Source: Balanoglossus misakiensis
Lineage: Eukaryota > Animalia > Hemichordata
DNA: 64,000 bases
Reading direction: 5' to 3'
NCBI GenBank assembly: GCA_040954595.2
Contig: CM082578.2
Span: forward strand, 4,818,831 to 4,882,830
The stretch's first letter is position 1, and each line of letters begins with the position of its first letter. This document shows, in pieces, positions 8,140-64,000 of the stretch. Both the position numbers and the translations under genes were made by a program. Below the pieces are notes generated by a model. That model was not told where the DNA came from. It was given only the letters and a program-made list of their open reading frames with translations, and did no database searches.

Positions 8140-9460
8140 TCATGTTTGTAACCTGTGCGCAACCAAAAGCAGTTTTTGTCAAATTGACGGTCAAAAATTG
8201 CTTCACTTAATCGTTCAATGAACTTTCGCATATCTTTATATGGTCATCCCAGGTGTCCGAATATATCACTACCTCGTCAACATAGGCGTCGCATCCATCT
8301 AGTCCAGATGTGACATCATTCATCATGTGTTGAAATGTCGCTGGTGAGTTTTTCATTCCAAAGGGCATCACTTTGAGTTTGTACTGGAACAATCCATCTG
8401 GTGTAACAGCGGCGGATATTTCTCGGGCACGATCTGTCAGAGGGACTTGCCAGAAGCCCTTGAAGAGATCAAATTTTGTTCCATACTTGGCTTTCCCCAC
8501 TCGATCAACGAAGTCATCAATCTTGGCAATAGGAAAAGTGTCTGACTTTGTAAGTGCGTTGACCTTTCTATAATCCATATACATGCAGTAGCTTCCATCA
8601 GGATTGGGAACGAGGATGCACGGTGAACTCCAGTTACTTACATGTGTTTGACGAAGTCATTGTCAAACAAATATTCCACTTCCTCTTAGAGGTATTTAGC
8701 TTTGTTGGGATTCAGTCTATGTGGATGTTGTTTCACTGGCCGAGAATCGCCCACATCAACATCGTGATGAATGGTGTTTGTCCTTGATGGAATATCCAGA
8801 AACAAATGTCTGTATTCGTGAATCAGTTCTTTCACATCTTGTTGTTGAGACGACTGGAGGTGTGACAACTTGGAGTCCATATCTTGGAGAATATCAGAGT
8901 TTTGGAGTCTGGCTGTGCTCAGTCGGTCAAATAGAATGTTCAACTTAATTTCCCCTATCATTACAAATATTAGAACTGACTGCATTGACAGGTTGTGCAA
9001 CTGCGTTTTTAGTATTAGACCTACTTCTTTCTATGTAGGGTTGAATCATATTTACATGACACAACTGTTTTTGTTTACGCCTGTCGGGAGTTTCCACAAC
9101 ATAATTTAGATCAGTCAACTTCTTATCAATGGTGTAAGGACCAAAATAGCGGGCTTGGAGTGGCTTTCCAGGAACCGGAAGAAAAACTAGCACCTTTCTT
9201 TTGGCCAGGCTCAAACTTCTGTTTTGAAGTATTTTTATCATATTTTGCTTTCATAGACCTCTGTGATGACTTCATGCTTTCCTTAGCCAATTCACATGCC
9301 CTTGAAAGTCTGCTACGAAAATCAGATATATATATTCTAAGAGGTTCAAACTCTCACTTTCATCTGATAAGAACTTAAATGGTCCCTATACAGTATGCCC
9401 ATACACAAGCTCAAATGGGCTAAAACCCAAAGATTCTTGAACTGACTCTTGCACTGCAAC
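8140..9460 (-). mobile_element. Degenerate Ty3/Gypsy LTR-retrotransposon pol fragment, Gmr1-like order (integrase C-terminus followed by RT)
   Basis: Minus strand gives ESVQESLGFSPFELVYGHTV*GP (about 9450-9380) and LQARYFGPYTIDKKLTDLNYVVETPDRRKQKQLCHVNM (integrase GPY/F module). These are followed by HHDVDVGDSRPVKQHPHRLNP and RT motifs MDYRKVNALTKSDTFPI, KFDLFKGFWQVPL, VMPFGMKNSPATFQ and AYVDE (degraded YxDD). Stops and frameshifts are present. Confidence 0.9.
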
Positions 9461-13859: not shown

Positions 13860-14694
13860 TCGAGGCGAAACCTGGCGAGACTTGGGCCGAAAAAACAAAC
13901 TCTTCCATCTTTGAATAAAGAAGTTGTCAGCAGACTGGTTATCCTTTTCAAAACGTCACATGCTCTCGCTAAACAAGTTTCCTTGGCTGTGTGACTTAGG
14001 CGAGGCTAAAGGTTTGAAAGTGGGGTCTATGTACAGGAATGATAAGAGAGCACAGGAATTTGTTTCTGCTATTGCTGATGCTGAACAAAACAAACTGGGT
14101 ACAATGATTAGGTGGTTGTCAATTATCTCAGATGGTGCCACTGATAGCTTGCACAGAGAGGCTAAAGTGTGCTATGTGAAGTCATGTCATTTGGGCGTAT
14201 CATCAACCAAATTTATTGGAATTAAAAATATTCCCAAAGCTGATGCAGTGATGGCATTTCTAGTGCTTTATCAACCTTATTATCAACCACACTTGGAGAT
14301 CATGATGAGGAATCCAAGTCTTGGAAAGATAAGGTCATAGGCTTCGGGTCAGACGGAGCAAGTGTAATGATTGGAAAGAAAGGTGGAGTGGTTAAGAAAT
14401 AAGAAATTCATACTTGGTGTCCACTGTTCTGCTCAACGGCTCGATTTGCCTTACAAAGATGTTAGTAAATCTATACCTTTGTACTCCAAAATGGATGGCC
14501 TGATGACCAACCTGTACTACTGCTACAGAAACAGTAGTTTGAACAGGAGCAATCCCATAGTGTCATTTAAAGCACTTGGAAAAAACCCATTGTTGCCAAC
14601 TCGAGTTTCAGGTACACATTGGCTACCTCATACAAAGAGTGCCTTACGGACCCTAATCGATGGATATGAACCAATTGTGACTCATCTTCAACAG
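13860..14694 (+). mobile_element. hAT (ZNF862-like) transposase pseudogene fragment
   Basis: YRNDKRAQEF, SIISDGATD, GFGSDGASVMIGKKGGV, GVHCSAQRLDL (CxxH region) and TRVSGTHWLPH, spread over several frames. Confidence 0.85.
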
Positions 14695-17600
14695 GTTAGT
14701 AAAATTTATATAGCAAAATAAATGTCTACAATCCATTGTTAATAAAAAATATCTAAATATAATTATAAATATCATAAAAATAAATATCATGGTTTTTGAT
14801 GACAATTTGAAATAGCCAATTTATGCAGTTGTTCAGTTGAAACTGAAGGTTAAAGGTCAAACTCTTTAATAACGAGCGATTTGATTAGCTAGTGGTTATG
14901 TGCCTGGACCAATCACAGAACACGTTATGTTATATGGCGACTTCAGTGAGTAAATATGTCATATTGCCGCTAGTGACAACGAGCCAATTATTACTTGTAC
15001 TGACAAATCACGGGTGAAATTGAGCGAATGTGCTGAAGTATGGAAGATTTCCGATGGGTTGGGGCAAAAAATTGCACTTCAGTTTAAGCCTGATCGAGAG
15101 CAAGAGGTTTATCACCTATGATGTTACCAGCGTTTTACAGACAAACGACATCTATCTCAAGCAGAGAAACGCAAAGAGAGTGGTAAGCTGCGGAAAACAA
15201 TTGTCGAACTTGTCGAGGAAACCAACGAAGACAAACTCCCAGGGTCTCTGCCTGTCAAGTGACGTTTAAGGTCACATTCGGGTGTGATGTCCAAGACCAA
15301 CCGCAGTGTCTTTTTAAAATATCCATTCTTTACATTGAATGAATGAGCAGCTACCAGAAATATTTCAGTATTAACTGGCAAGTAACATCCTCAGTCCTGG
15401 CCTATTCAATATGAAAAACTTGATGAAAGCAGTAGCTGACGCCATGTGGAAACTTTGCCACAAGGTGCTGCTGGCCACATAGAAAGTGAATGTCATTGAA
15501 TGATGGTGGTTCACTAGCTACTCCATTCAATTCCACATGGGAAAAAGGAAAATTTGCATGAAAGTACATTCAGTGGTAATACAGGTATGTGGGTAATACA
15601 GAACTATGGAAAAGCTGTTGTGATGTTTCACGGTTATCAGAATAGACCATCAACTAAAGATAGCACTCACTTATAAAAGATAGCAAAAATTACAGATGAC
15701 AGAAGCGCACTTCACAGGACACATGGTCAACCGTCGTACATGTAAATGAAAAGAAAGATGCATATTTATCAAATCAGAAGAATAAGCAATCAATCATCAA
15801 CAAGCCCAGCAGACAAAATGGTGTCAAAAACAAGTCATGTATGATCCTGAAGAAGATGCTGACAAGCTCATTGTCCAAAGAGTGATTGAAAGTTCATCCA
15901 CAGCTAAAACAGTGAATGTTGGCAATTACGCCAATCACTGATTTTTCTTTGCTACCCTGCACCCATTGACTTTTCCCATCAAATTTACATGTACTTCAAG
16001 TACAAAGCAAAATTAATTTTATCAAGTTATCAAAAGAACCACATGTACAATATTATATCCCCAACTGAAATAATTTTAAGCTTTAAAAACTAATTAACAG
16101 TTTCCTTAATATTTGACATGTGGTAACAATATTGTATAAGGTTTATATTAATAATCAGAGCAACCATGTAAAATATTAGACATCGAATACTGTTCCCCAA
16201 GCATAATACTAAATTTAAACTTCCAAATTACAAAAACGTCGTGTTTATTTCATGGCAACAAGCTATTTTCATAGGAATGTTAATAGCAGCCATATTGGGT
16301 TTATGCAAATTAGGCACATTTTCACAAGGTACGTGGACTCGGGTGCATGTTGTTTTACTTTTAATTTAGGTAACTGTCTGAAATCAGTTCTAAAGAAAAA
16401 ACTCTCTTACAATTGCGGTGGGTTAGGTGCCCAAATCGCGTAGATTGAATAGACTAAACGTTAAACGGTGGAAAGGTAAGACTTCTGTCATGACATTCTC
16501 ATTGTATCATGTACCGGGGGTATGGCTACATGTATATATGCTAAATGGGTGTTTGAAATGAAGCCAGTCCTCTTACTCCCAGTTGTAATACACGGGAAGC
16601 TACAAATGGGTTTTCTGTAACTACCGAGTCTGGATTTGTTGCAATCTGTCATGGATTTTCCATAGGGTACTTTTGGCAGAGTAAATCAGCCTGCACCAGT
16701 ATTGGGTGACGATTAAGTAATTCAAAGTCTACACCTTTTGACAATGACATCCTGTGTGAGCGTGTTTTGTCAAAATGAAAGATAGGCCCACAAGAAACTC
16801 ACTGTACAATTCAAGGCGACCAACGACATTCCATGCACAGTGTGTAGCTAACTCCAGCAGGAATCATCGATTCAAATGCGTACACGCATCCTTCTCGAAT
16901 ATTTGCGTCATGTCGCCCATAAATATGGCGTCATCGTTTTTGAGTGAAAATTCAGTCTAAACGTTCCACTCACTGCCTGCGATAGAACCACTGAGAGAAG
17001 AATCAAAATTCTCCTACCTCAGATGAAACTTGCATCCGGACTGCTGGCCAATACTTAGCACCAAATTTCATGAATAATATTTCCATTCTGAGGGCTAGGC
17101 GCTCCATTTAAAACACGATGGAAGTACACTTCTAATTATTAGGTCCGCCATTTTGGTCCATCATCACCACAATTATACATCGCCCTCAACGATACATGAA
17201 AGTCACCGTTTTGTTTCTACACATGTACAGCTCTCTGTGGACAGGATACTACTGCACACTGTCAGTACTGATTCCTTGCCAGTTTCAGACAGCGTATATT
17301 TTTTGATGCATACACTTGCACCGGTGGCACAAAATAGTTACAGGGGCGTAGGAAGCAATTCATGTTTGGAGAGAGGGGGGGGGGGGCAAAGTTAAGGAGA
17401 CCAACATTCTGGTGGTATTACGGTTGAAATCGACGATATTTTGCTGTGTGATGCACAAATGTCAGATATCACAGCTTGTTTGACAATAAAGAGAGCCTTA
17501 CGGACCGTAATCAATGGATATGAACCAATTGTGACTCATCTTCAATAGGTTAGTAAATTTATGTAGCAAAATAAATGTGTACAATCCATTGTTAATAAAA

Positions 17601-22824: not shown

Positions 22825-25800
22825 ATGGTGGAAGCATGGGCCTCCGGCTTCGGTATTTTCCTTGGGCTTCTGGTTATTCTTTTGACTGGTATGACGTGCG
22901 ATGGCAAGCGTAGCCAGACAGGTAAGAATGAATCACAAGATATGTTATTTAGACTTTGGATTCTAATATAAAGGCGCAACAATAAAACATGACAGTTTGG
23001 TTTGTCAACGTTTGACAGTGTGTTTACAAGCAGAAGATATCTTATCTTCTCACAACCTTTCGCCAACATGTGAACTCTATCGATGTAACCTTAACCGTAC
23101 CCCCGCTTTGGCGGTAAATGGACCAATATAGTGACCGGGAGAAGTTGGTAGACAACGCAGTACGACTGCGCATAATCCATCCCGTCACAGTTATATCTGA
23201 CAGCTTGGCTAGCTGAGAGCACTACTCCACATTGCACGAACAAAAATAATCATTTTATTTTTAATCGTTAGAAAGTGTACTTAGCACATTTTGGCTATTG
23301 CGTTCAAAATAATAAATTCTTTGGCATCATTTACGGACTCCGTAGTGACGATAACGTACATCTGATGGTTTTAGTGAGAAATACTATTTTCATGGATGAA
23401 TTGCTAGCTACTTTCCAATTCCTCGCTATGTTTGTCAAGCCCAATCAACTTGGCAGACTGATCGCTTCTATAGTATTTTCATTCACTGTCTAATGGGATC
23501 TTAAAATATAGTTAGTCACTCATGTACTCCTGCAGAATGTTGCAACAGCATCTTTTTCATTCTTTGACTTTTGTGCGTGATTCAGGTTGCGAGCCCGGGT
23601 GGGACAGTTTTAAGGATAAATGTTACTACGCCTACAAGTTTTCGTTGTATACCTACGATGAAGCGAGGACGCTGTGTATTGCAATGGGAGGTGCACTGGC
23701 GAAGATAAACGACGTCGAAGAAGACTTCTATTTGAAAGGTTTGTGATCTGTCGGACGCATAACATTGATTCGGATGTTTATTTTCGTACAAAATTATTGA
23801 GCATGGACATTGTTTAAAGATGAGTTAATCAGAATGTGTTCTCCTCCAAAAGAGATTCGCCATCAAATGTTGACGCTTCTTCTCCAGTCAAGTAGTACAT
23901 GCAGATCTGGGTAGTCCATCTACTTGACAACGATACGATTTATTTAAAGGGACACAGTCTCTCTCTCGCAGCCCTATTTCAATTAATTATGTTTGATACA
24001 AAACACTGTGACAGTTTATGTTATTCTACATGTGGATATATTGTGAATGAACGTTCGACCACATACAACTTCCATCCCGTTTGTAGGATATGAGAGTAAA
24101 AACTCGCCCTAAATGAATAAATGGTAAAGAACGATTATTCATTTTGGTGAGTTTTTCACTCTCGTGTCTACAAGTGGGATGGAAGGTGTGTGTTGTCGAA
24201 TGCTGTTTCAATATATACATCCACATGTAGAATAATGTAAACATTGTCTTGTATCAAACATAATTAATGGAAAAGGGGCAGCGAGGTATCAAACATAATT
24301 GATGGTAAATAGAGAGACTTTTTAAGGAACAAATTAAGTTTACGAAGCCCAATCTCTTTTATTGTCACAGGGTATACAGAAGGCACAGTTAATATGTGGC
24401 TGGGTGCAAACGATCGCCAGAATGAGGAAATGTGGACATGGGAAGACGGTACCTCGGTGAGTCTTTGTGTGATTCTATTGCTTTTCTGTACGATATTCAC
24501 GATGACGTGGATGTGATTAGTTTGTGAGAAGCATCAAACCCTGGTCGATTTGACATTGCACACCAACCGTCAAAGACGGACAGCTAAACCAACCAACCAA
24601 CCAACCAACCATGTACCCAACCAACCAATCGGCCAAAAAACACCGAGTCTCGCATACGCATGCAAGTACTGCTGTATGCGGGTTCCAATGCATAAAGTCG
24701 TATATGTAGAGTAAAGCCGCAATTCCCTACCGCACAACCACAACATAACTCTCAATTCTTTGGCAGATGACGTACACTAATTGGAAAACCGGCCAGCCAG
24801 ACAACACCGACAATGTCGAACACTGCTTGCATTTCTACGATAAATGGCAAGCGAAATGGAACGATGCCAATTGCGATTTGCTCATGGGATTTATCTGCGA
24901 AAAAGAAACACGTAAGTATTTTTCTCACATCTACATGTATTCACAACACTGCAATTTTTTTACGATTCTAAGTTTATTTTGTCTTTTTATTTTATTCTTT
25001 TTTTTCTCACACTACTTACAATTACTTATTTTTTATGTCACGGTAAGCTTATAAACACCAATGAATTTTGAAAACAAGACTAAATGGTAAAAGTTTACAT
25101 CTAGCATTTTTCGATTTTTCATTCAGTTGGTATAAGATGTGGGATGAAATGGCCGAGTCAGCAACTGTCTTGTGCACCAAACGGATAGAACTTTAATTGG
25201 CAGCTATTGGGGTTTTAGGTTTGAAATAAATTGTTATACCAAACATTTCGGCGCACGACACGACGACTTACTGTGTGGTGCCGCGACCAGAATTTAGCGA
25301 ATTTCAATTTATGTAAGACCAAATTCAAAACAGAAAAATAGCGTCAAGGACACTGTGGTCCCATTTGAGGATTATGCGGAAACAGTGACACACCAGAATA
25401 AAAATTACAGGTGACATTGCAAGCAGATCTGCAAGCAGCAATATCGGGCCTAAGCCAACATAGCACATAGCAACATAGCAATAAGCATATCTGCTCTGGA
25501 TGCCAAGATATGATAAAGTAGGTCAAAGGTCACCTGAGGTCATGCAAAATTTGGGCAAGAAATTTTGACCCTATACTGGTCCAGGTTCAACAAAAACCAA
25601 ACCTATAGCCCTATTGGTTAGCCTGGAATTAGGTATGCACATAATTAATGAGATATGCAGGTGTCACAGGTGACCCCCAATTTTGGCTTTTCAATTTTAG
25701 TCCCAACCCTCCAAACGCCAAGTCTGTACCTGCTCTGGATGCCAATATATGATAAAGTAGGTCAAAGGTCACCTGAGGTCATGCAAAATTTGGGCAAGAA

Positions 25801-27935
25801 ATTTTGACCTTATACTGGTCTATGTTCAACAAAAACCAAACCTATAGCCCTATTGGTTAGCCTGGAATTAGGTATGCACATAATTAATGAGATATGCAGG
25901 TGTCACAGGTGACCCCCCAATTTTGGCTTTTCAATTTTAGTCCCAACCCTCCAAACGCCAAGTCTGTACCTGCTCTGGATGCCGAGATATAGGAAAGTAG
26001 GTCAAAGGTCACCTGAGGTCACCCAAAATTTGGGCAAGAAATTTTGACCCTATACTGGTCCATGTCCCATAAGAACGAAACCTCTAGCCCTATTAGTTAG
26101 CCCGGAATTAGGTATGCACATAATTAATGTGTTAAGCAGGTGTTACAGGTGAGCCCAAAATTTTGCCTTTTATTTTGGCCCCATTGTGCTCACTGACCAA
26201 TAGACAGTCACTGTACAGGACTATTGCACAGACCAGAATTCCACAATAAGACGTGGACATAGCTTAACCATAGAGGTATGAGTAAAGGTATAAATTTAAT
26301 AAAAAGACTAAAAAATTCATAAAAAATAAAACATCGATGATATTAACTTAACACTTACAGGTCGATGTGAGGTTGACATAAGGTACATGCATACCAATTT
26401 TTAAAGCAATCTGACGAGTAGTTGTTGACTTTCAGAGTTTTGATAAATTTCACATTTTCCCAGCTAATTTGCATATTTTTGGGCCTGGCAACTTCGTTTG
26501 GACAAACTCCCATCTACAGCCTAGCCTGCACCTACACACCAAATATTGAGGTGATACGCGCAGCGGTTTTCAAGTTTTTGATGTGGACGGACATACAGAC
26601 ATACATCCATCCATACATCCATACATACATCCATACGCAACCGATCCCATAAGGTCCCATGGTATATATGCCTATACCAATGGGACCTAAAAATGGAACC
26701 AAGCAAAATCTGCCTCCGACACATTGCACAAATGACAAAGTTCCGAAAAAATGCACCGGGTCACACCGGGTATAAACCCTCATTTCAGCTTCATTTACAA
26801 CGATTTTCTGCCAGCAGGTGATTCAGCATGCGCAGTCACCGCTGTTGGGTTAGAGAGTGGCGGCATACCGGACTCACAGATAACAGCCAGTAGCAACTAT
26901 GATAACATCCACATGTCCTATCAAGGGAGACTGAACTACGCTGGGTCCGGATCGCATGCTTGGTGCGCCTTGCAGAATATCGCCGGACAGTGGCTGCAAG
27001 TTGACCTTGGTTACGAGAGACTAGTAACAAAAGTGGCAACCCAGGTGAGTCAATTGTCATGACTGAACAGTGACGAACGTGGGAGCTGTCTGTCTGTCTG
27101 TCTGTCCACTCTCGGTTACTCAAACCCCTCTGCCCAACGGAAGAAGCAGAGGGCTCTGGGTAACCGAGACTATCTGTCCACCAATCTTTTATGGAGGACA
27201 CTTTCCTATAAAGAGTGGCAACAGGTAATGAGTGGCGCCTTCCCCACATTCGATGAATACCACGTTACGTACTGCCACAACACATTAAAGCCTTATTTGG
27301 TATTGTGGTATTATAGGGACGCGGTGACTGCTGTGACCAATGGGTGAAGACGTTTCATTTAAGATACTATGGGGACGGTGAATGGAAATATGTTACTGAC
27401 GAAAACCACTCACCTATGGTAAGTGTTCGCGTCGTCCGCTCCATTTTAAGTGATATTACTTCGGAAAACATGTCTTCAACTTTCGTGTCGTAAAACCCAT
27501 TTCACACATCAACAGAAATTACGTTATATCGAACTTACTGACAATTTCTAAACTGTACAAGATGAAAGTAAAATCTGCTCATCCATACATCATGTTTGTG
27601 CAGGCTTTTTTGTTTTCATGTGCTTTGTGTTTCTCTTCCTGATGAAGTTATGATGGACAGATGAACATACACTTGTATAATTATTTGCGTTGGCTTGTAA
27701 CACCTGGCACCGTGACAACAGCATTACTAGAAATGACGAACGGACAAAGTTGATAAATCTCTTAAATTGAGAGTTCTTTTTCACATTCCAGACATTCCAA
27801 GGGAATTCTGATGCGGACACGATCGTCTACCACGACTTGGTCGAAAACTCGTTCACCACTCAGTACGTCCGATTTTATCCCCTGACGTGGGAGGGCCACG
27901 TTGCAATGAGAGCGGAGATCTACGCATGTGAATAG
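22825..27935 (+). CDS. Secreted C-type lectin + F5/8 type C (discoidin) domain protein, gene A, about 318 aa
   Basis: Exons 22825-22921, 23586-23738, 24371-24456, 24767-24911, 26815-27044, 27317-27418 and 27792-27935, all GT-AG and phase-consistent (957 nt). Signal peptide; long-form CTLD (CEPGW..FKDKCY, WLGAND, QPD, WND, FICEK); FA58C (GLESGGIPDSQITASS, WLQVDLG, VATQGR, VRFYPLTW, MRAEIYAC*). AATAAA at about 28090. Confidence 0.92.
25335..26690 (-). mobile_element. Non-autonomous Helentron/HINE (DINE-1/Pearl-like) insertion in an intron of gene A
   Basis: Absent from the matching intron of gene C. Contains about three 239-240 bp tandem monomers (25491, 25730, 25970), a (CATA/CATC)n microsatellite and a terminal hairpin ggtcccatggtata..tataccaatgggacc next to an A-run. 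Confidence 0.7.
27110..27172. mobile_element. Mini hairpin element ending in CTA with a 9-bp TSD
   Basis: tctcggttac..ctctg / cagag..gtaaccgagacta, flanked by tctgtccac at 27101 and 27173. Confidence 0.7.
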
Positions 27936-28617: not shown

Positions 28618-29920
28618 TTAATAATAACGGCATTGACTTGTTTGGTCAGCTGAAAGATAAACAAAATATGTAATTAGAGAAAAAAGTGAAGTTTCTAAGG
28701 TACATGCATTGGTTGCCCTACTACACTATGCTAAATGTGTCATTATCATAATACCTAGATTCGCGTGCTTCTGTAACTCTCTAAGAAAGAGCGCCCTCAC
28801 AACCGGGCATTTTTTACGTATCACGCCCCAGTCTCGGTTACCCAGACACTTCTGCTTCCCGGAGCGCGGGTATGTTTATGATGGAAGTGAAGCTAAAATC
28901 AATACACCTACTGGCACAAATGTACGTAAATTTTACAACAGACATGCGCATTAGCCCACTTCCGGAATGCCAAAAAATTAGCACTTTACGAAATGGCGGA
29001 TGGAGTTTATCTGCGATATAGGGATACTAAGTATATCTTGCTCGTACGGCCGGGCTCTTCCGCCGTACAACCTCGGTCCGCAAATCCCATACCTTGGGCG
29101 GGGGGGGGGGGGGGTAAAGATTACTGATAAGACCATTTGGAAGGTCTTTCCCGTGTGATTCGAATTCAAAGTGTCAAAAAGACTTTCCAAAGTGTTATAC
29201 AGTGTTATTTGACATATTCAAACCAAGATGATGGAAGGTAATCTCTTCTTGAAAAAGTGCTTATAACAAACTTACGGCAGTCATCATCGAGTGCGTTCAC
29301 ATCTCCGCCTACGGTCACAGAGCTACCGCTGTCCGTCCACGAAAACACATTTCCAACTTTCCGATCCCCATAACGACAGTTTTGACAGATAAGAAGTAAC
29401 GTGTCGAAGCCCATGTCATAGTCGAACAGTTGTAACCTGGTGAGTTTTCCGACAAATGCTTGGTATTTTTTCTGGGAGACGACACCCAAGACATCCTGGT
29501 CCTGCCCCAGGAAGAAGACGCCGCCGCCTGGAATCGTAGTTCCTGTCGCTAGCCCAGCGCCACTTCCGATACTTTCGCCATCAACAGAAATTCCAACTTT
29601 TCCCTCCTGACTCGACCAATAGGCACACACGTGATGCCAATTCGTGTCAGCCAGATTAGTCAGCTTCGAAAGTGCAGCGTAATTCATGACGTGCAGTCTC
29701 AAGCGAGTACCATAATCTTCTTGGCGCAACATCAGATCATTGCACCAGAGCTCTCCGCTGCCGCAGTAGGAGAATAAGGCAGCCTCTTCGGTCGACTGTT
29801 GGCCCGCCGACGCAGTTTTCTGCCATATACACACTGTCATCTCCGTCATGGTAGGAACGTCTACATTAACTCTAACATCTGATTCTGTTGAAGTAAACTC
29901 GAGTGTTTTGTCGGCAGCTA

Positions 29921-29967
<47 letters not shown>

Positions 29968-30610
29968 AGAGATTACTATATAATACTAAAAGTACATGTA
30001 TTTCAAATCTTCCTGTGCGATATTTGCCTTAATTACTGTTGATTTATTCTTCAAAAAGCACAAACACGTGGGCTGCATCTGAAAATCGTACAAAGACGAA
30101 TAGGTTCGTTGAATTATATCATAACACAGAAACACATTTAGACTATACATGTATTTAGAGTAGTTTTACAAACTTACTATTTACGTTTCCCGAAGCATAC
30201 CTCTTCATAATAGTAAGCTCGGATATCTCAGCGCAATCCAGTGTAAGCAACTGAAGAAGAAATAAATGTATATAGAATTTGTAAGATTGGGGCCGGTGTT
30301 TAATTCAATCCAATAATACTTTATTCAACAACTGAGCAAGTGAATTAGCTGAAGCTAATGTACGTGAAAGGTGGAAGTGAGCTTTTGGTGACCAATCCGA
30401 CTGTGGACAGGATACGAATAGGGACCGTAACAACACACACCTACGCACACTGTCACTTACACCATCTAACCAATTCAAACCAAACTAGTCTGAGGGAATA
30501 GGCTATATCCGAAACCCCAAAAAATTATCAAGTAGAAGTGACAATTCGAATCAACTTACCTGACAGACTGCAACTGCAATCAGGAACACAACTTTCAACC
30601 CAACAGCCAT
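28618..30610 (-). CDS. Secreted short pentraxin (CRP/SAP-like), about 265 aa
   Basis: Exons 30610-30560, 30250-30178, 29917-29276 and 28649-28618, GT-AG and phase-consistent (798 nt). Signal peptide MAVGLKVVFLIAVAVCQ; TVCIW, LFSY, WHHVCAYW (pentraxin signature), VDG and GGGVFFLGQDQD. AATAAA on the minus strand at about 28458. Confidence 0.9.
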
Positions 30611-41100: not shown

Positions 41101-44024
41101 AAACTATTTTATCATTAATGCGTATATATACATCAAGTTTGAAAATTAATACTCCAAGCCAGGCAGTGTACATTTGCATAAGAGTCAACATCGAAACTCG
41201 ACTTCAAGACCCAATGAGCGATTTTCTGTGCTGTTGTTTTGGATAGATCATAGACCCATGGCGTTATTTTATTATAACATAATTAGGTTATACCATGATA
41301 TCCGGTAAACACGATTTGTGGATTGGTTTAAGTGACATCGAGAACGAAGCTGATTGGAGGTGGGAAGATGGCACTGAGGTTGGTGTTATACATTTCTTTG
41401 TCTATTGATAATATCGCATGCATGCAACGAAGCTTGTTCCAGTATTATTGATCAACAAGATTGGGTGTTCGATCGATGATTTGCTCTGCAATTACGCCTT
41501 CTTCGTGCATGATGGTGTTATTTGAAAGGATATCTGAATAGTCCAGTTTGCATGATGAGAACCACGCTTCTGATTGTCAAGAGCAATGACACGGGTGTTG
41601 CTAATAGTAGGAAAATAATTGGCATTAATTAGCAATGTCTGTTCCATTGTAACGGCCAATCAGTGAGTGTGTCACGTTAAGTAATTGACTTGAACGACGT
41701 CAGAGTCAAAACCATGTTGCCGTGACATCGCATTTTGAGTTCTATTGACATGCCAAATTTCGAAGATAGTAGGCTGCGTTTCCAGACCCTCTGTGTGCGA
41801 GTCTATCTGAAACACACTTGGGTCTGGATACTAGACTACAGGCGAGTTTTTTCATTCAACAGCTGTCATACAGAAACTGGGCCACATTAGAACCACAGCG
41901 TGCCGGCAGTTGGGACTGTGCTGTCATATCAGGAGTTAGTGACGGTTACTGGAAAACAAGTGACTGTGCAGAGAAACGAGGATTCATCTGTCAAAAATCT
42001 GGTGCGAATTTCTACATGAATTTATTCACTTTGGTCATTGGTTACACTTCTCACCCAATTACAAATCATTTTCTGAATTATTTCGCTGCAACATATCTGC
42101 TGGAAATGCTTATAGAAAGGGTAATATTATAATTTGTAGTAATCAGCTTTGTTATTGTTGAAAATCGACGTCAAGTCCCGACATTAAATATTTGTCAACA
42201 TAACATTTGCCTTTACTCATGTGCAGGCTTTGTTGGGGAGCTAAAATATAATTTTAGAAAATTAAGCTATCCAGAATAGAACAAGAAACTGGTGTTGATG
42301 CACGGGGAACATAGAAAAAATATCCGCAAATCAGTCGACTGCAACGTCCGTCGCCTGTTACTAAAATGTCTCGCCCATTTCAGGTCCATGTAAGTCCGGG
42401 CCTGTTGGTGTAGAGAATGGAGTTATACCAAATTCGCAGATGACGGCGAGCTCTAATTGGAATAGTAAGCACATGTCTCATCAAGGAAGGCTTAACTACC
42501 AAGGCCCATCTGGATATTCCCATTCGTGGTGTGTACTACACAACAACGCCGCACAGTGGTTGCAAATTGACCTTGGTGGGGATAGGAAGGTCACCAAGGT
42601 CGCCACACAAGTAAGTACACAACGCACAAAGAAAAAAATACTTTCCATAGTTGGTCAAAAAACCTAAGTGACTAAATAAAGGTCGCATGAAAAATAGCAG
42701 AACAAGAGCGCAACGCATCAAGGGTTTCAATTCAACCAAATGTTGCATGCATGTTTTACAGGTTACGAACATGCTGAGCTTATACATTATGACCGCACTT
42801 TGCTTCTTGTTAAATTTACTAGGGGCGAGGTGATTATTCTCAGTGGGTGACATCATTCAAACTCGGCTACCACAAGGAACACGGACAATGGACACATGTG
42901 ACTCGGGACGATGGCTCTGAAAAGGTATTAATGTAAAATTCGGCGGGTATAAGTCACGCAATTTTTTACAAAAACGAAAGCAAGTTGGCAGAATTTCCAA
43001 TATGGCGTTTACTGTAATTAGAATCATGGGAAAAAGAGCCAAGTCTTAACTTCCGCCCAACACGATGTGGTTGATACCATTTCCCGATAGCTCTTGATTG
43101 TTTATCAACTGCTGCAAAGTACAAACAATGGCCACAGGGATTTATTCAGGGATTTGATAATAGTCGGTCAGCTTTTTCTTCTTCTTCTGTCTTTCTCTTA
43201 CCCTAACGATTCTAACTTTTCTCTTACCGATACACTCAGGCTGCCCTACTCGTGCGATGCACCCTCTTTTGGTGTGTTCTTCCTACCACCTGACCTCCAG
43301 CTGACCTCCTACCTTGCCTTAAGACAAGGTAGGAGGTCAGGCGGTAGGAAGAGTTCACCAAAAGACGGCGCATTTTATCATGCATATAATTATACTGTGC
43401 CATTGTTAATACTGTGTACGAGCAGAGAAGCCTCAGAGTTCAGGTAAGAATCGTATCGGTAAGAGAAAGACAGAATAGCTGACAGACAACAAACTTATTC
43501 AGTTTCTATCATATAATTATTTCTAAACTTTCCCTTAATAAATCCCTGTGCAATGGCTATGCAAATATGCCCAGCCTAAGTGCAGTGACACTTATCGGAA
43601 AATGGTATCGTCCACATCATTTTTGATGGAAGTGAGACCTTGCGTTCGCCTCAACCCCCCCCCCCCCCCCCCTATGATTCAAATTACAGTAAACGCCATA
43701 TAGGAAATTCTGCAAACTTTCCCCCGTTTGTGTAAAAGAAATGGCACAACTTAATTAGCACTACGAAAAGTATATTTCGGAAAGAGTGACCTCAAAGCTA
43801 CCAATTATGTAGAAATCAGGTGGACCGGACTTCCCTTTGAATAGTCCTCACCCGTCGTCACCCTCTCTTTTATGTTTCAGATTTTCATTGCGAATTCTAA
43901 CAGGAACACAATCGTCTACCATGAATTGGGAGAGAAAGCATTCACTGCAGAATCTGTTCGGTTTTATCCAGTTACCTGGTATGGTGGTATCGCCATGAGA
44001 GTGGAAATCTATGCTTGCGAGTAG
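38192..44024 (+). CDS. Secreted C-type lectin + F5/8 type C domain protein, gene B (older paralogue), about 306 aa
   Basis: Exons 38192-38255, 38964-39116 (GC donor), 41287-41378, 41863-42001, 42384-42610, 42823-42924 and 43881-44024 (921 nt, phase-consistent, same intron positions as gene A). WIGLSD, EPQ, FICQK; GVENGVIPNSQMTASS, WLQIDLG, TQGRGD, MRVEIYACE*. Confidence 0.88.
40257..40848. mobile_element. Non-autonomous Crypton-like element with a long terminal hairpin
   Basis: Starts with ttaa..gattctgattgg; nested inverted repeat 40704-40846 (gcaataacccccgcc..gggtatacac..ggtacaattc..atatagcac and its complements) ending in ttaa. Family assignment is inference. Confidence 0.5.
42960..43740. 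mobile_element. Foldback/MITE with long imperfect inverted arms, hosting the element at 43133-43550
   Basis: gcagaatttccaatatggcgtttactgtaattagaatcat versus atgattcaaattacagtaaacgccatataggaaattctgc, plus inner arms. Confidence 0.7.
43133..43550. mobile_element. P-element-like MITE
   Basis: TIRs CACAGGGATTTATT / AATAAATCCCTGTG, 7-bp TSD caatggc, and internal inverted repeats. Confidence 0.7.
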
Positions 44025-48857: not shown

Positions 48858-51800
48858 TTATGCACGGCAGGTAATTGCCACTTCATACGGTTGTGGAGTC
48901 AGGGTTAAACCCAAGTGCCCTTCCTCACTCAATTTCTCAGTCCCCTCAGGCAAAGAGAACTTGAGCTGTTGTAGCATCGATGTGAAGAATAGGAAAAGCT
49001 CTTGCTTGGCTAAATTTGCACCCATGCAGACGCGATTGCCTTGGAGGAAAAAAAGATAAATAAATGAATAAGTGGATGAATCATTGTAAAAGTAATATGA
49101 CAAAATGCATAGTTTATTCATGACTTTGCATTTGAAATACACAGAGAAAAACTGTATGTGTCAAAATCCAGAATTCAGTTTTAGGGTATATCAGAAATAA
49201 TGGTCATTGGATCAAGCAGAATGCCACTATTCGTTAAAGTCAAAGTATAAGAAGAGCATCTCTAAAAGCGTAACAATCCTTAAGATAGTCAAACGTTGCA
49301 AGTTGAACATGTTTTAGTAAAACAACTGCAAACTATGCTATGCTTATGAGAAACACTCACAACATTTATGCCTACCTGCTGAGAATGGTAGAATACGGTC
49401 AACGTCCTTCAGTGCCTTGGAGTCCTCATCATAGAATCTTTCAGGAGAGAATTTATCGGGCTCAGGGAATGTTTTCGGGTCGTTATGAATTGACCTGCAT
49501 CATCAAAATGAAAATAATAATTATAATATTTTTGGTCTGGATCAAGCACGCTGATTGGCTGTGGCCGAGGTGTATATCCTTAACTAGAAGACCTGGAGTC
49601 TGAAATTGATAACATACAAGAGAACTCGCCTGAAAAGAACACACTTTTATGAATTCTACTGGTGTTGGCATAAAATCGTGCAAATATGCTATTATCACCT
49701 GAGAAGTCTCATATCCGCAACCAAATACCCTCGCTTGCCGTTTATACTCTATTTTGCCTTGACATAAGGTATACCCCAGAGGAAATACATGCCTTGTATG
49801 TAGATTAATTTGTAGAATTTCAAGAAAAATGAAAGTACACTTGGTTTACCCACCACAAATTCATGTGGACGGTGGTGCCCTTTGGTATGTTGTAACCATT
49901 CAGAGTTGTGTCAGTTGTTGTACAGTGTGGGGTTGTGGTTGGTGCAACACTGCCCAGCCTCTGCACTTCATTGATGGTAGCTAGAGTGTAGGGCATTTTG
50001 TCTCGGTCCTCCAGCCGTGGATGTCTGTTACATCCAATGATCTGTGTATGCAGAGAAAGACACAATCAAATAGATCTTCAAGCCTAAAGTTGCCTCATCT
50101 CTCAGGTAAGACACAATAGTGCTAATATTGTGCCTCAAATATTCCTGCGTAAATTCATGACACTAGAATGGCACTCCCTGTTTTATGCAAACCTTAACAT
50201 TCACTATAGTTGTCAAAATTCGCCTTGTAAATTATACACGAACAACAAGATCTAAAAGGGCAGATTGTAATTCAGCCAAGAGTTATCCAATCTGTATGTA
50301 CAGTGTGTTAGTCAACAAACTAATGGCTAGAAAGGCCAGGCCTAGGGTAAGCACACACAGTCAATGGATAGAATGTTAAGTACCTCTTTGATTTCATGGT
50401 AGACCTTGTCTTGAACTTCTGGGTGATTCACCATGAAGAGTATGGCCCATTCAAGCGTGGTGGAAATTGAACTTGTGCCCTGTGAAAACAAGTTCATTAT
50501 AGTGAACTGCAGCTGTGAGTCAGAAAAAATGTCGTTTTTACCATTTTGCTTCTTCTGCTCAACAAGATATGCATCAACCAAGTCACGGGTGCTATCTTTA
50601 TTCAGCGCTGCTCGATGCTCTTCGATTTGCTCACGACAGAATCGTTTGACTTCCTCAGCAGAATGTATGAATCCACCAGATTTGTTGTCGAATAACTTGC
50701 GAAGTGGTTGGGGAATATTTTCGAGTGATGCCACCTCTTGATAATGTTTGTACCATTTCGTCAAACTGTCGAGTATATCGTCGAACTTGGAGTCACCATT
50801 CTTCTTCTGCTCAACCAAGTATGCATCTATGAAATCACGGATGTTGTCTTCGTCAAATGTTGCACGATGTTCTTCAATTTGCTCACGACAGAATCGTTTG
50901 ACTTCCTCAGCAGAATGGATGAATCCACCAGATTTGTTGTCGAATAACTTGCGAAGTGGTTGGGGAATATTTTCGAGAGATGCCACCTCTTGAAAATGTT
51001 TGTACCATTTCGTCAAACTGTCTAGTATATCGTCGAACTTGGAGTCACTATTCTTCTTCTGCTCAACCAAGTATGCATCTATGAAATCACGGATTTTGTC
51101 TTCGTCAAATGTTGCACGATGTTCTTCAATTTGCTCACGACAGAACCGTTTGACTTCTTCGGCAGAATGGATGAATCCACCAGATTTGTTGTCGAATAAC
51201 TTGCGAAGTGGTTGGGGAATATTTTCGAGAGATGCCACCTCTTGAAAATGTTTGTACCATTTCGTCAAACTGTCGAGTATATCGTCGAACTTGGAGTCAC
51301 CATTCTTCTTCTGCTCAACCAAGTATGCATCTATGAAATCACGGATGTTGTCTTCATCAAATGTTGCTTTATGCTCTGCGATTTGCTCACGACAGAACCG
51401 TTTGACTTCCTCGGCAGAATGTACGAATCCACCAGATTTGTTGTCAAATAACTTGCGAAGTGGTTGGGGAATATTTTCGAGAGATGCCACCTCTTGAAAA
51501 TGTTTGTACCATTTCGTCAAACTGTCGAGTATATCGTCGAACTTGGAGTCACCATTCTTCTTCTGCTCAACCAAGTGTGCATCTATGAAATCACGGATGT
51601 TGTCTTCATCAAATGTTGCTTTATGCTCTGCGATTTGCTCACGACAGAACCGTTTGACTTCCTCGGCAGAATGTACGAATCCACCAGATTTGTTGTCAAA
51701 TAACTTGCGAAGTGGTTGGGGAATATTTTCGAGAGATGCCACCTCTTGAAAATGTTTGTACCATTTCGTCAAACTGTCGAGTATATCGTCGAACTTGGAG

Positions 51801-54169
51801 TCACCATTCTTCTTCTGCTCAACCAAGTATGCATCTATGAAATCACGGATGTTGTCTTCGTCAAATGTTGCGCGATGTTCTTCAATTTGCTCACGACAGA
51901 ACCGTTTGACTTCTTCGGCAGAAAGGACGAATCCATCAGATTTGTTGTCGAATAACTTGCGAAGTGGTTGGGGAATATTTTCGAGAGATGCCACCTCTTG
52001 AAAATGTTTGTACCATTTCGTCAGGCTGTCGAGTATATCGTCGAACTTGGAGTCACCATTCTTCTTCTGCTCAACCAAGTATGCATCTATGAAATCACGG
52101 ATGTTGTCTTCGTCAAATGTTGCACGATGTTCTTCAATTTGCTCACGACAGAACCGTTTGACTTCTTCGGCAGAAAGGACGAATCCATCAGATTTGTTGT
52201 CGAATAACTTGCGAAGTGGTTGGGGAATATTTTCGAGAGATGCCACCTCTTGAAAATGTTTGTACCATTTCGTCAAACTGTCGAGTATATCGTCGAACTT
52301 GGAGTCACCATTCTTCTTCTGCTCAACCAAGTATGCATCTATGAAATCACGGATGTTGTCTTCGTCAAATGTTGCACGATGTTCTTCAATTTGCTCACGA
52401 CAGAACCGTTTGACTTCTTCGGCAGAAAGGACGAATCCATCAGATTTGTTGTCGAATAACTTGCGAAGTGGTTGGGGAATATTTTCGAGAGATGCCACCT
52501 CTTGAAAATGTTTGTACCATTTCGTCAGGCTGTCGAGTATATCGTCGAACTTGGAGTCACCATTCTTCTTCTGCTCAACCAAGTATGCATCTATGAAATC
52601 ACGGATGTTGTCTTCGTCAAATGTTGCGCGATGTTCTTCAATTTGCTCACGACAGAACCGTTTGACTTCTTCGGCGGAATGGACGAATCCATTAGATTTG
52701 TTGTCGAATAACTTGCGAAGTGGTTGGGGAATATTTTCGAGAGATGCCACCTCTTGGAAATGTTTGTACCATTTCGTCAGGCTGTCGAGTATATCGTCGA
52801 ACTTGGAGTCACCATCCCTCTTCTGCTCAACCAAGTATGCATCTATGAAATCACGCACTTGGTCCTTATCCTGGGTTGCTCGATGCTCTTTGATTTTCTC
52901 AGAACAGAACCGTTTGACTTCGTCGGCAGAACTGCTGAATTCACCAGATTTCTTTTCCAATAACTGACGAAGAGGTTCGGGAAAATTTTCAAGATTGGCC
53001 ACCTCTTGATAGTGCTTGTACCACTGAGTCAAGCTTTGGAATACCTCGTCGAACTGCACATCGCTTTGGCCAAACCTCTTACCGAAGACTAAGGCGCAGA
53101 TAACGTTTGCTACGCTTCTGGCAAAGTGCTTCTGAAGATTCGCCTGTTTTCCATCATGCTCCTAAGAAACAAATGTATCGGATAAATTAAGCAAACATTT
53201 CATGTAAAGGGTGCACTTGCAGGTCTGGTGTAAACAAACATTTCATCAATCACATGATGTGACAACAAGTAAAGTGTATGCTGTAAGGATCACCCTCTGC
53301 AATTTGTCTGCCAATACCTTCAGTGTGTCGACCAACGCTGCCGCTTCTTCGGTAATGCTACCTTCCATGCTGGACTTTCCAAATCCCAGTTCCCTCAGGG
53401 TGACGTGTGCAAATTTTCGCTGATGTTGCCATTCTTTGGTATACTGGCTGTCACCAATGCCTACAGAAGGAACCATGGATACATGAATTGCATTTGCCTG
53501 GAATCGTCACTTGGAACTCTTTTATCACGATCTCTTTTGCTCCCACCTGTTTTAATTGCATCTGACGCTGTTCCCTTCTGCAATGGGAAACTGATATTTT
53601 GAATTGCGAGAACCGTTAGCAATTTTTAGAACGACGTAAGCCTATTTTGAATCATGTCCACCCAAACAAGATGGAACATGCTAGTTTAGCTTTTGAGCTT
53701 TCAAAATGACTACTACTTCACCCGGACAAAGAGCTCTTGGAGAACGTCTATACTACCAGACAATTGACCTATATAGGAAAATTGTCTTTCCTAAAAATTC
53801 CCCCAGATATTTACCTTCATACTGTGGGTTGAACACCCCAATGTGCCAAGATTTTGGACGATCAGCAAAATCTTTCCCCTTCTTCACCAACGCCTCTTTG
53901 ATGGTGTCCAGGCCATTGACGACCACGACAGGCTGTCCGTTCAGCTTCAAACTAAACACTTCACCATACTTTTCCTTGATCTTCAACCAATCCTTGAAGG
54001 GAGCCTTGCGTGAAGATACCAGGGCACTGCCGATGACCGGCAGCCCCCACGGACCCGGAGGAAAATTCTTGCACGGGGCCCGGTAGTGTTTGGCGGTGAT
54101 CCAAATTATCAGAGCGGTCAACAGCGCTTGAAGGAAGAAAAGTGGATCGGTTGGTATTACAGCGTACAT
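48858..54169 (-). CDS. Cytochrome P450 (clan 2, CYP2-like) with a 10x tandem F-G-H-helix expansion, about 1254 aa
   Basis: Exons 54169-53815, 53460-53318, 53161-50384, 50041-49854, 49494-49376 and 49039-48858, all GT-AG and phase-consistent (3765 nt). N-terminal membrane anchor, PPGPWGLPVIG, FADRP, WQHQR (WxxxR), GFGK, VANVIC..VFGKRF, EVQR (ExxR), PERF, and FSAGNRVCMG (haem Cys). Confidence 0.93.
50536..53055 (-). repeat. Coding tandem repeat, 10 x 252 bp (84 aa), inside P450 exon 3
   Basis: The junction ttggagtcac occurs at 50787, 51039, 51291, 51543, 51795, 52047, 52299, 52551 and 52803 (exact 252-bp period); there are no stops or frameshifts. Confidence 0.97.
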
Positions 54170-61143: not shown

Positions 61144-64000
61144 ATGGTGGAAGCATGGGCCTCCGGCTTCGGTATTTTCCTTGGGCTTCTGGTTATTCTT
61201 TTGACTGGTATGACGTGCGATGGCAAGCGTAGCCAGACAGGTAAGAATGAATCACAAGATATGTTATTTAGACTTTGGATTCTAATATAAAGGCGCAACA
61301 ATAAACATGACAGTTTGGTTTGTCAATATTTGACAGTGTGTTTACAAGCAGAAGATATCTTATCTTCTCACAACCTTTCGCCAAAATGTGAACTCTATCG
61401 ATGTAACCGAACCGTAACCCCGCTTTGGCGGTAAATGGACCAATGTAGTGACCGGGAGAAGTTGGTAGACAACGCAGTACGACTGCGCATAATCCATCCC
61501 GTCTTTAACACAGACGCAACAGTTATATCTGACAGCTTGGCTAGCTGAGAGCACTACTCCACATTGCACGAACAAAAATAATAATTTTAATCGTTAGAAA
61601 GTGTACTTAGCACATTTTGGCTATTGCGTTCAAAATAATAAATTCTTTGGCATCATTTACGGACTCCGTAGTGACGATAACGTACATCTGATGGTTTTAG
61701 TGAGAAATACTATTTTCATGGATGAATTGCTAGCTACTTTCCAATTCCTCGCTAAGTTTGTCAAGCCCAATCAAATTGGCAGACTGATCGCTTCTATAGT
61801 ATTTTCATTCATTGTCTAATGGGATCTTAAAATATAGTTGGTCACTTACTGTATGTACTACTGCAGAATGTTGCAACAGCATTTTTTTCATTCTTTGACT
61901 TTTGTGCGTGATTCAGGTTGCGAGCCCGGGTGGGACAGTTTTAAGGACAAATGCTACTACGCGTACAAGTTTCCATTGTATACCTACGATGAAGCAAGGA
62001 CGCTGTGCACTGCATTGGGAGGTGCACTGGCAAAGATAAACGACGTCGAAGAAGACTTGTATTTGAAAGGTTTGTGATCTGTCGGACGCATAACATTGAT
62101 TCGGATGTTTATTTTCGTACAAAGGCAAAGTATTGAGCATGGACATTGTTTAAAGATGAGTTAATCAGAATGTGTTCTCCTCCAAAAGAGATTCGCCATC
62201 AAATGTTGACGCTTCTTCTCCAGTCAAGTAGTACATGCAGATCTGGGTAGTCCATCTACTTGACAACGATACCATTTATTTAAAGGGACAAAGTCTCTCT
62301 CTCGCTGCCCTTTTCCATTAATTATGTTTGATACAAGACACTGTTTATGTCAATGTACATGTGGATATATAATGAATCAACGTTCGACCACATACAACTT
62401 CCATCCCGTTTGTAGGATATGAGAGTAAAAATCTCGCCAAAATGAATAAATGGTGTACACCGATTATTCATTTTGGCGAGTTTTTCACTCTCGTGTCTAC
62501 AAGTGGGATGGAAGGTGTGTGTTGTCGAATGCTGTTTCAATATATATATCCACATGTAGAATAATGTAAACATTGTCTTGTATCAAACATAATTAATGGA
62601 AAAGGGGCAGCGAGGTATCAAACATAATTGATGGAAAAAGGGCAACGAGAGAGAGGCTCTTTAAGGAAAAAAATTAATTAAGTTTACGAAGCCCAATCTC
62701 TTTTATTGTCACAGGGTATACAGAAGGCACAGTTAATCTGTGGCTGGGTGCAAACGATCGCCAGAATGAGGAAATGTGGAGATGGGAAGACGGTACCTCG
62801 GTGAGTCTTTGTGTGATTCTATTGCCATGGCTGTACGATATTCACGATGACGTGGATGTGATTAGTTTGTGAGAAGCATCAAACCCTGGTCGATTTGACA
62901 TTGCACACCAACCGTCAAAGACGGACAGCTAAACCAACCAACCAACCAACCAACCATGTACCCAACCAACCAATCGGCCAAAGAACACCGAGTCTCGCAT
63001 ACGCATGCAAGTACTGCTGTATGCGGGTTCCAATGCATAAAGTCGTATATGTAGAGTAAAGCCGCAATTCTCTACCGCACACCCACAACATAACTCTCAA
63101 TTCTTTGGCAGATGACGTACACTAATTGGAAAACCGGCCAGCCAGACAACACCGACAATGTCGAACACTGCTTGCATTTCTACGATAAATGGCAAGCGAA
63201 ATGGAACGATAACAATTGCGATTTTCTCATGGGATTTATCTGCGAAAAAGAAACACGTAAGTATTTTTCTCACATCTATTCACAACACTGCAATATTTTT
63301 TACGAGTATAAGTTTATTTGGTCTTTATATTTTATTCTTTTGTTTCCCACACTACTTAAAATTACTTATTTTTACGTCAAGGTAAGCCTATAAACACCAA
63401 TGAATTTTGAAAACAAGACTAAATGGTAAAAAGTTTACATCTAGCATTTTTCGATTTTTCATTCAGTTGGTATAAGATGTGTGATGAAATGGCCGAGTCA
63501 GCATCTGTCTTGTGCACCAAACGGATAGAACTTTAATTGGCAGCTATTGGGGTTTTAAGCTTGAAATTAATTGTTATACCAAACATTTCGGCGCATGACA
63601 CGACGACTTACTGTGTGGTGCCGCGACCAGAATTTAGCGAATTTCAATTTATGTAAGACCAAATTCAATACAGGAAAAATGGAACCAAGCAAAATCTGCC
63701 TCCGACACATTGCAGCGCACAAATGACAAAGTTCCGAAAAAATGCACCGGTCACACCGGGTATAAACCCTCATTTCAGCTTCATTTACAACGATTTTCTG
63801 CCAGCAGGTGATTCGGCATGCGCAGTCACCGCTGTTGGGTTAGAGAGTGGCGGCATACCGGACTCACAGATAACAGCCAGTAGCAACCATAATCACATCC
63901 ACATGTCCCATCAAGGGAGACTGAACTACGCTGGGCCCGGATCGCATGCTTGGTGTGTCTTGCAGAATATCGCCGGAGAGTGGCTGCAAGTTGACCTTGG
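61144..64000 (+). CDS. C-type lectin + F5/8 type C protein, gene C (recent duplicate of gene A; runs off the window end)
   Basis: Exons 61144-61240, 61917-62069, 62715-62800, 63112-63256 and 63805->64000; splice sites and frame are intact; QPD and WND are retained. Confidence 0.9.

Follow-up and report, generated by a model that had tools for sequence, protein, structure and literature searches.

Non-canonical I-helices are fairly common among cytochromes P450, and nearly always it is the acid or the threonine that is altered, the small residue over the haem being left in place. The acid-alcohol pair of this helix is by definition Asp/Glu-Thr/Ser (PMC11842817, excerpt). At the Thr site, allene oxide, prostacyclin and thromboxane synthases have Asn, Asn and Ile, respectively, and the Ala four residues earlier is kept (PMC13049297, excerpt). 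The Phe of the Cys pocket is absent from CYP8 and CYP74 (PMC11900375, excerpt), and the haem-binding loop of CYP74 carries a nine-residue insertion (PMC10813956, excerpt). PtmB and the TDKP dimerases, which are bacterial radical-coupling P450s, keep a Ser, have Val in place of the acid and are active (PMC11573659, excerpt), while in the CYP255 peroxygenases (SyoA, GcoA) a Gln-Glu replaces the acid-alcohol pair and supplies an acid-base Glu (PMC11842817, excerpt).

The gene described here has a Gln at the first position of A-G-x-E-T. In the literature searched, which took in few subscription journals, Gln at this site was not reported for any natural P450, and the likeness is limited to an engineered mutant of BM3 (CYP102A1), A264Q (motif numbering from PMC11900375, excerpt). 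According to the same excerpt, A264Q without substrate is closed and low-spin, its water displaced and the Gln not bound to iron, A264E hydroxylates at a reduced rate, and neither A264K nor A264H is active, both being locked. Improved, active BM3 variants carry E267V. A264Q differs from the present gene in that it was made in the laboratory, in a soluble bacterial fusion, with Glu267 and Thr268 kept. The original paper on this mutant is said to have had the Gln ligate the iron and be displaced by substrate, contrary to the later review. In the CYP4 family a long polar residue presumably occupies the same position. CYP4 enzymes have a covalent Glu-haem link (PMC11900375, excerpt), but they belong to a different clan and have Glu where our gene has Gln, so the ester link is not expected in the latter.

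Gene structure and integrity

The window, by which we mean the whole stretch of 64,000 nucleotides of Balanoglossus misakiensis DNA that was analysed, carries a P450 gene of six exons on the minus strand. All junctions are GT-AG, and the 3765 nt of coding sequence, without stop or frameshift, encode 1254 aa:

53815..54169, minus strand: exon 1, from the start codon through the membrane anchor, PPGP hinge and A-B helices into the B-C loop; GT donor
53318..53460, minus strand: exon 2, C helix (WxxxR and basic reductase-face residues kept) and D helix; AG/GT; aligns to CYP2D6/2C5
50384..53161, minus strand: exon 3, 2778 nt open from end to end, coding for the E helix, ten F-G-H units and helices I and J
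49854..50041, minus strand: exon 4, K helix ExxR (49969-49958), SRS5 with the propionate-binding His kept
49376..49494, minus strand: exon 5, PERF, meander with D1185 (49406-49404), Cys-pocket F1192 (49385-49383) kept
48858..49039, minus strand: exon 6, N1196, haem ligand C1199 (49028-49026), A1202, L helix, stop

The hallmarks of the P450 superfamily are all present (FxxGxRxCxG with the Cys ligand, ExxR, PERF and WxxxR), and five of the six exons match Pfam PF00067; for exon 1 the E value is 1.4e-13, and this exon also matches Ptychodera P0001 at 62%. Every haem-binding residue equals the homologue consensus, and W129, R133, ExxR, H1131, F1192, R1197, C1199 and G1201 all match it (among the matches listed, W and R of WxxxR are found in 176 and 185 of 189 homologues, respectively). 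The minus-strand open frame 50342-53161 terminates in the I-helix motif peptide discussed below. No second P450 was found in the 64-kb window by tblastn.

Read contigs were available from three public runs of one sample, possibly the window's own source, and do not represent independent individuals. In each of the three runs contigs span the motif, no difference being listed, and the four amino acid changes in question require at least six base substitutions (two for Ala>Gln, two or three for Glu/Asp>Ser, one for Thr>Ser and one for Asp>Asn); a sequencing slip is therefore rejected. A frameshift or wrong register was ruled out by the gap-free alignment of the I-helix. A 1257-nt contig of one of the runs, X3, carries the motif, leaves out introns 3 and 4 at their exact boundaries (CT..AC ends), joining the 3' end of exon 3 to exon 4, and has pieces that jump intron 5 too, which indicates that the motif exon is spliced. 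X3, in which the introns have no long cover, is labelled 'DNA?', so that its RNA origin is read solely from these exact intron-skipping joints, and its cover excludes exons 1-2 and most of the repeat array.

Several other features of the region were noted. Intron 4 contains a high-copy repeat (49600-49750) with a summed contig depth in the thousands. C-type lectin and F5/8 (discoidin) exons (Pfam) lie at 41773-44021 on the plus strand, with similar lectin/discoidin exons near 24749-27059 and 63094-63998 on the same strand; as look-alikes of this kind are found in at least three places in the window, the P450 sits within a tandem lectin cluster, on the opposite strand. By eye, a 255-codon open frame at 29208-29972 (minus strand) is pentraxin/laminin-G-like, and broken frames at 8210-9250 (minus) and 13915-14718 (plus) resemble reverse transcriptase/integrase and a hAT-type transposase.

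Placement among CYP2-clan P450s

Homologues were drawn from a set of 372 proteins, pooled from three overlapping searches: one gave 118, and from the other two the best 150 out of 1916 and the best 120 out of 2787 were taken. The nearest relatives among the matches listed are acorn-worm CYP2U1-like proteins, with 44-55% identity over the one-unit core. These uncharacterised hemichordate clan-2 P450s (Ptychodera flava P0001, Glandiceps talaboti P0122 and Saccoglossus kowalevskii P0003-P0008) have the anchor, C helix, ExxR, PERF and haem loop in common with our gene; the literature searched, with few subscription journals covered, contained no paper on this acorn-worm subfamily. Best matches, tree placement, and the anchor with its PPGP hinge all assign the gene to the microsomal CYP2 clan. 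In a quick tree, built on 32 selected rows that are clan-2-like throughout and offer no other clan, it is sister to three P0001 domains (SH-aLRT 98), on an end branch of 0.51 against 0.10-0.27 in these three.

The I-helix motif and its rarity

The features of the I-helix that concern us here are these:

50447..50494, minus strand: motif NLFSQGTSSISTTLEW of the I-helix (aa 1056-1071); no acidic residue in SRS4
50492..50494, minus strand: N1056, second I-helix acid lost
50480..50482, minus strand: Q1060 (CAG), position of CYP2B Ala298 and BM3 Ala264, predicted over the haem iron
50468..50473, minus strand: S1063 (AGT)-S1064 (TCA), acid gone, alcohol retained as Ser

The CYP2B numbering (A298/E301/T302) follows from an offset that we take to be 19. 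The substitutions A>Q, E/D>S and T>S listed in the initial annotation are borne out by a gap-free alignment to CYP2B6, CYP2C8 and CYP2B4 (Ala>Gln at Q1060, Glu>Ser at S1063, Thr>Ser at S1064). That annotation had named an E/D-T pair aligned elsewhere as what would overturn it; none occurs in the I-helix, the nearest acids being D1047 and E1070. Its description of the acid-alcohol pair as lacking is right for the acid and too broad for the alcohol, since S1064 is retained and Ser belongs to the pair as defined above.

An HMM of the I-helix retrieved 430 domains from 364 of the 372 proteins, domains that are not fully independent owing to fused gene models and duplicated exons. Among these listed matches the Ala site is occupied by A (394), G (17), T (13), S (3), P (2) or V (1) and never by Gln, small A or G thus accounting for 411/430; position 4, Ser in our gene, is D/E in 407 and lacks the acid in 23; and position 5 is T in 386 and S in 33, so that the Ser of the gene falls within the T/S alternatives. 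Absence of the acid together with Ser at the Thr site is seen in 3/430 of the listed domains. It is therefore the Gln that is rare, acid loss being uncommon and the alcohol not lost at all. The acid is present in each of the 17 hemichordate domains, whose residue at the Gln site is A in 15, G in one and V in one, and no orthologue with the full motif exists among the 430 listed domains, these 17 included. The second acid is also unusual in its absence: the N1056 column is D/E in 171 of 190 homologues and N in 9, and both I-helix acids are missing from just one of the 190 (again among the matches listed). A word-based homologue search with the last unit and the I-helix gave 124 candidates, none at E<=0.001.

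Two apparent exceptions were discarded: a Gln in P0229 (residues 212-249, 1 of 313 BLAST rows) is a misplaced upstream segment, superseded by the HMM count, and a His at the Gln site of P0111 in a global alignment lies in a gapped, aberrant stretch. P0123, P0163, P0178 and P0130 are clan-2-like P450s in which two or three tandem domains have no I-helix acid, and as such represent putative small acid-less subfamilies elsewhere. The database models P0154 and P0221 have the I-helix segment in two to four tandem copies, perhaps duplicated or mutually exclusive exons fused by gene prediction.

When the gene is compared with 16 clade sequences, 5 of the 8 clade-conserved columns in the central I-helix are changed, as against 17/146 across the protein (hypergeometric p 5e-4, rising to p 0.03 once every 17-residue window is taken into account). 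Relatives have 0-3 changes of 8-10 in the same segment, and overall departures to which that of our gene is in some cases comparable (P0274 19/161, P0001c 16/124, P0122 14/154). The distal face has been rebuilt beyond chance expectation. This bears on the idea that the gene is a relaxed duplicate which has lost catalysis, its I-helix drifting and the motif having no function of its own. The long end branch, the absence of the motif from every homologue among the matches listed and the single-sample data would all suit such an origin, which nevertheless seems very doubtful to us: the changes are concentrated in the I-helix with the haem ligands untouched, the 3765 nt remain free of stops and frameshifts, and the repeats described next are constrained.

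The ten-copy lid

Exon 3 owes its length to an amplified segment:

50534..53053, minus strand: ten in-frame 252-nt (84-aa) F-G-H lid repeats, within exon 3

The amplification adds 756 aa, and removal of nine units leaves 498 aa, the ordinary microsomal length; none of the 16 aligned clade sequences has a lid array, unlike our gene. Of 252 bases, unit 1 differs from the inner units at 49-54 and unit 10 at 34-43, and with dS of 0.3-0.6 between end and inner units the array is old. Among the inner units there are 14.5 synonymous and 10.5 non-synonymous changes (dN/dS 0.18, p about 1e-5, the figure that argues against drift). In 11 chosen pairs, which are not independent and in which gene conversion is likely, dN/dS ranges from 0.10 to 0.66, with 10 at p<0.05 and units 1 and 6 at p=0.24. 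The array is thus translated and under purifying selection, which makes it likely that the protein is made and needed and says nothing on selection at the motif.

An assembly artefact can be dismissed as the source of the array, since units differ at up to 66/252 bases with synonymous change above expectation. The array is not an intron either: one X3 contig reads through the best cryptic acceptor (50513) into unit 10, and another, of 282 nt, crosses a unit junction with zero mismatches. That acceptor, a fair one on the minus strand before the I-helix, and a donor-like site at 53082 (minus) before unit 1 have the array between them. An isoform using both would be without the whole F-G-H lid; the sole X3 contig there is unspliced at the acceptor. 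As units 1 and 10 retain the original joins, the extra units might conceivably loop out where E meets F or H meets I, leaving one complete core.

The initial annotation had also raised the possibility of a lipid-binding protein. This is disfavoured by the F-F' segment of the lid, whose hydropathy of -0.66 is the most polar of 16 rows, the four nearest domains scoring +0.94 to +1.22. SRS5 is polar too, though not uniquely (P0001b and P0122 score lower).

The proximal face

The C-helix basic residues and the membrane anchor are retained, but two other basic residues of the reductase face are lost. D1185 stands where 171 of 188 homologues have K/R and none an acid, N1196 where 149 of 190 have K/R and 41 a non-basic residue, and both sites are non-basic in 4/188 (all among the matches listed). 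A1202, directly after CxG, replaces a residue that among the listed matches is E in 179 of 189 homologues and A in none. D1185 was equated with CYP2D6 K429 by counting 14 residues back from the Cys, a register that relies on counting because exon 5 had no CYP2 structure match. Over the eight positions of a CYP2D6-reductase model (PMC7794467), a list chosen after the two sites had been noticed, the charges sum to +3, a lower value than in any of the 182 homologues scored among the matches listed (+4 to +8). With the D1185 and N1196 sites left out, the proximal charge is +5, the same as in the clade, where seven relatives have +4 to +5. K433 of CYP2B4 lies at the cytochrome b5 interface (PMC4330534, excerpt); residues of the CYP2B4 reductase site were not found in the literature searched.

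The loss of two proximal basic residues appears to point away from ordinary reductase-driven hydroxylation, and the lowered net charge fits a presumably weakened electron supply. Together with the rest of the gene this brings up a serious rival to catalysis, namely a pseudoenzyme in which Gln1060 permanently caps or ligates the iron and the protein is a membrane-anchored binder, sensor or scaffold with the ten-copy polar lid as its working part. Four separate features jointly lean this way, with the haem ligands staying in place (the distal cap, the loss of both I-helix acids, the lowest proximal charge of 183 scored and an old, selected lid array), and BM3 mutants with K or H at the Gln site are inactive. 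We nonetheless think a wholly non-catalytic protein rather unlikely, given that the Ser hydroxyl, the Gly, the Cys-pocket Phe and the C-helix basic residues are all retained. Moreover, the Gln of BM3 A264Q does not coordinate iron according to the review (PMC11900375, excerpt). The first description of A264Q reportedly differs from the review on iron coordination. In its boldest form, which we regard as improbable, the protein would be a natural cysteine-haem-glutamine P450 that has left reductase-driven hydroxylation to become a glutamine-gated haem sensor or binder, its ten-copy lid serving as a multivalent binding array.

A lowered proximal charge would also suit an enzyme driven by peroxide, whether a hydroperoxide isomerase or lyase or an H2O2-dependent peroxygenase or peroxidase, in which Gln1060 would hydrogen-bond the peroxide as does the Asn of allene oxide and prostacyclin synthases. 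A likeness to CYP74, CYP8A1 and CYP5A1 had been proposed for the gene on these lines, and the shared features are a non-canonical I-helix and, for CYP74 and CYP8A1, an amide near the haem. Homolysis requires no fixed residue, the fungal 8R/9R-AOS retaining Thr (PMC13049297, excerpt), and the acid-less PtmB uses H2O2 with help from its substrate (PMC11573659, excerpt). The details, however, run against the comparison. The amide lies four residues ahead of the AOS/PGIS Asn site, where the AOS, PGIS and TXS motifs quoted keep Ala (PMC13049297, excerpt); in our gene that Ala is replaced and the Thr position, Asn in CYP74 and CYP8A1, is Ser1064. CYP5A1, which retains Ala and the acid and has a non-polar residue at the Thr site, presents the opposite pattern. 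F1192 is kept where CYP8 and CYP74 have lost the Cys-pocket Phe, and the nine-residue insertion of CYP74 is missing from a loop of standard F-x6-C spacing. CYP255 resembles the gene in having a Gln in the I-helix groove, but its Glu/Asp acid-base residue has no counterpart in Ser-Ser, and a polar lid is ill-suited to fatty-acid chains. The likeness to the three peroxide-rearranging families is thus not supported, and we give peroxide-driven chemistry of any kind only a slim chance.

A possible role for the glutamine

The reading we favour, with somewhat less than even confidence, is that of an intact CYP2-clan P450 which would act as a slow, specialised oxidase dependent on O2 and reductase, with a polar substrate displacing a Gln cap. 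It is preferred because the Ser, the Cys-pocket Phe, the anchor and the C-helix basic residues are kept, and because each single change has an active precedent. The PtmB/TDKP dimerases share with the gene the lost acid and Ser as the alcohol, and theirs is a substrate-assisted chemistry; they differ in being soluble and bacterial, their acid site is Val, an alanine (Ala250) precedes Ser254 by four residues, and the sequence match is weak (E 0.34). PtmB cannot separate the oxidase from the peroxide reading, since it also runs on H2O2. Insect and plant precedents, CYP307, CYP719 and CYP121, are not counted as evidence here.

At rest, Gln1060 would fill the space over the iron, the sixth-ligand water being displaced and the haem low-spin and closed, as in BM3 A264Q. 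The right substrate might then push Gln1060 aside, allowing reduction and O2 binding, and Ser1064 could steady the iron-hydroperoxo intermediate. With both I-helix acids gone, protons would have to arrive via OH or NH groups of the substrate and ordered water. Such an arrangement would be better suited to radical coupling or to oxidation of phenols or indoles than to bare C-H hydroxylation. Enteropneusts accumulate halogenated aromatics (PMC6315191), and these are our guess at a candidate substrate class.

Several considerations count against this oxidase reading. The K and H locks of BM3 show that a distal cap can, by analogy, kill catalysis; the 756-aa lid amplification may hinder substrate gating; the lowered proximal charge has been discussed; and the motif is shared by 0/430 homologous domains among the matches listed. 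The suggestion in the initial annotation that the protein is not a monooxygenase survives in part: the rebuilt distal face, the lost proximal basic residues and the seriousness of the non-catalytic alternative speak for it, and the likeness to peroxide isomerases does not.

Significance

Judged from its sequence, the gene is a genuine CYP2-clan P450 variant, and a rare one, and the glutamine over the haem is the point worth following. The weight of the finding is that of one gene in one sample. If the variant is natural, expressed and selected, it would show the use of a Gln-capped thiolate haem, and would show whether an animal CYP2 can become gated or non-catalytic.
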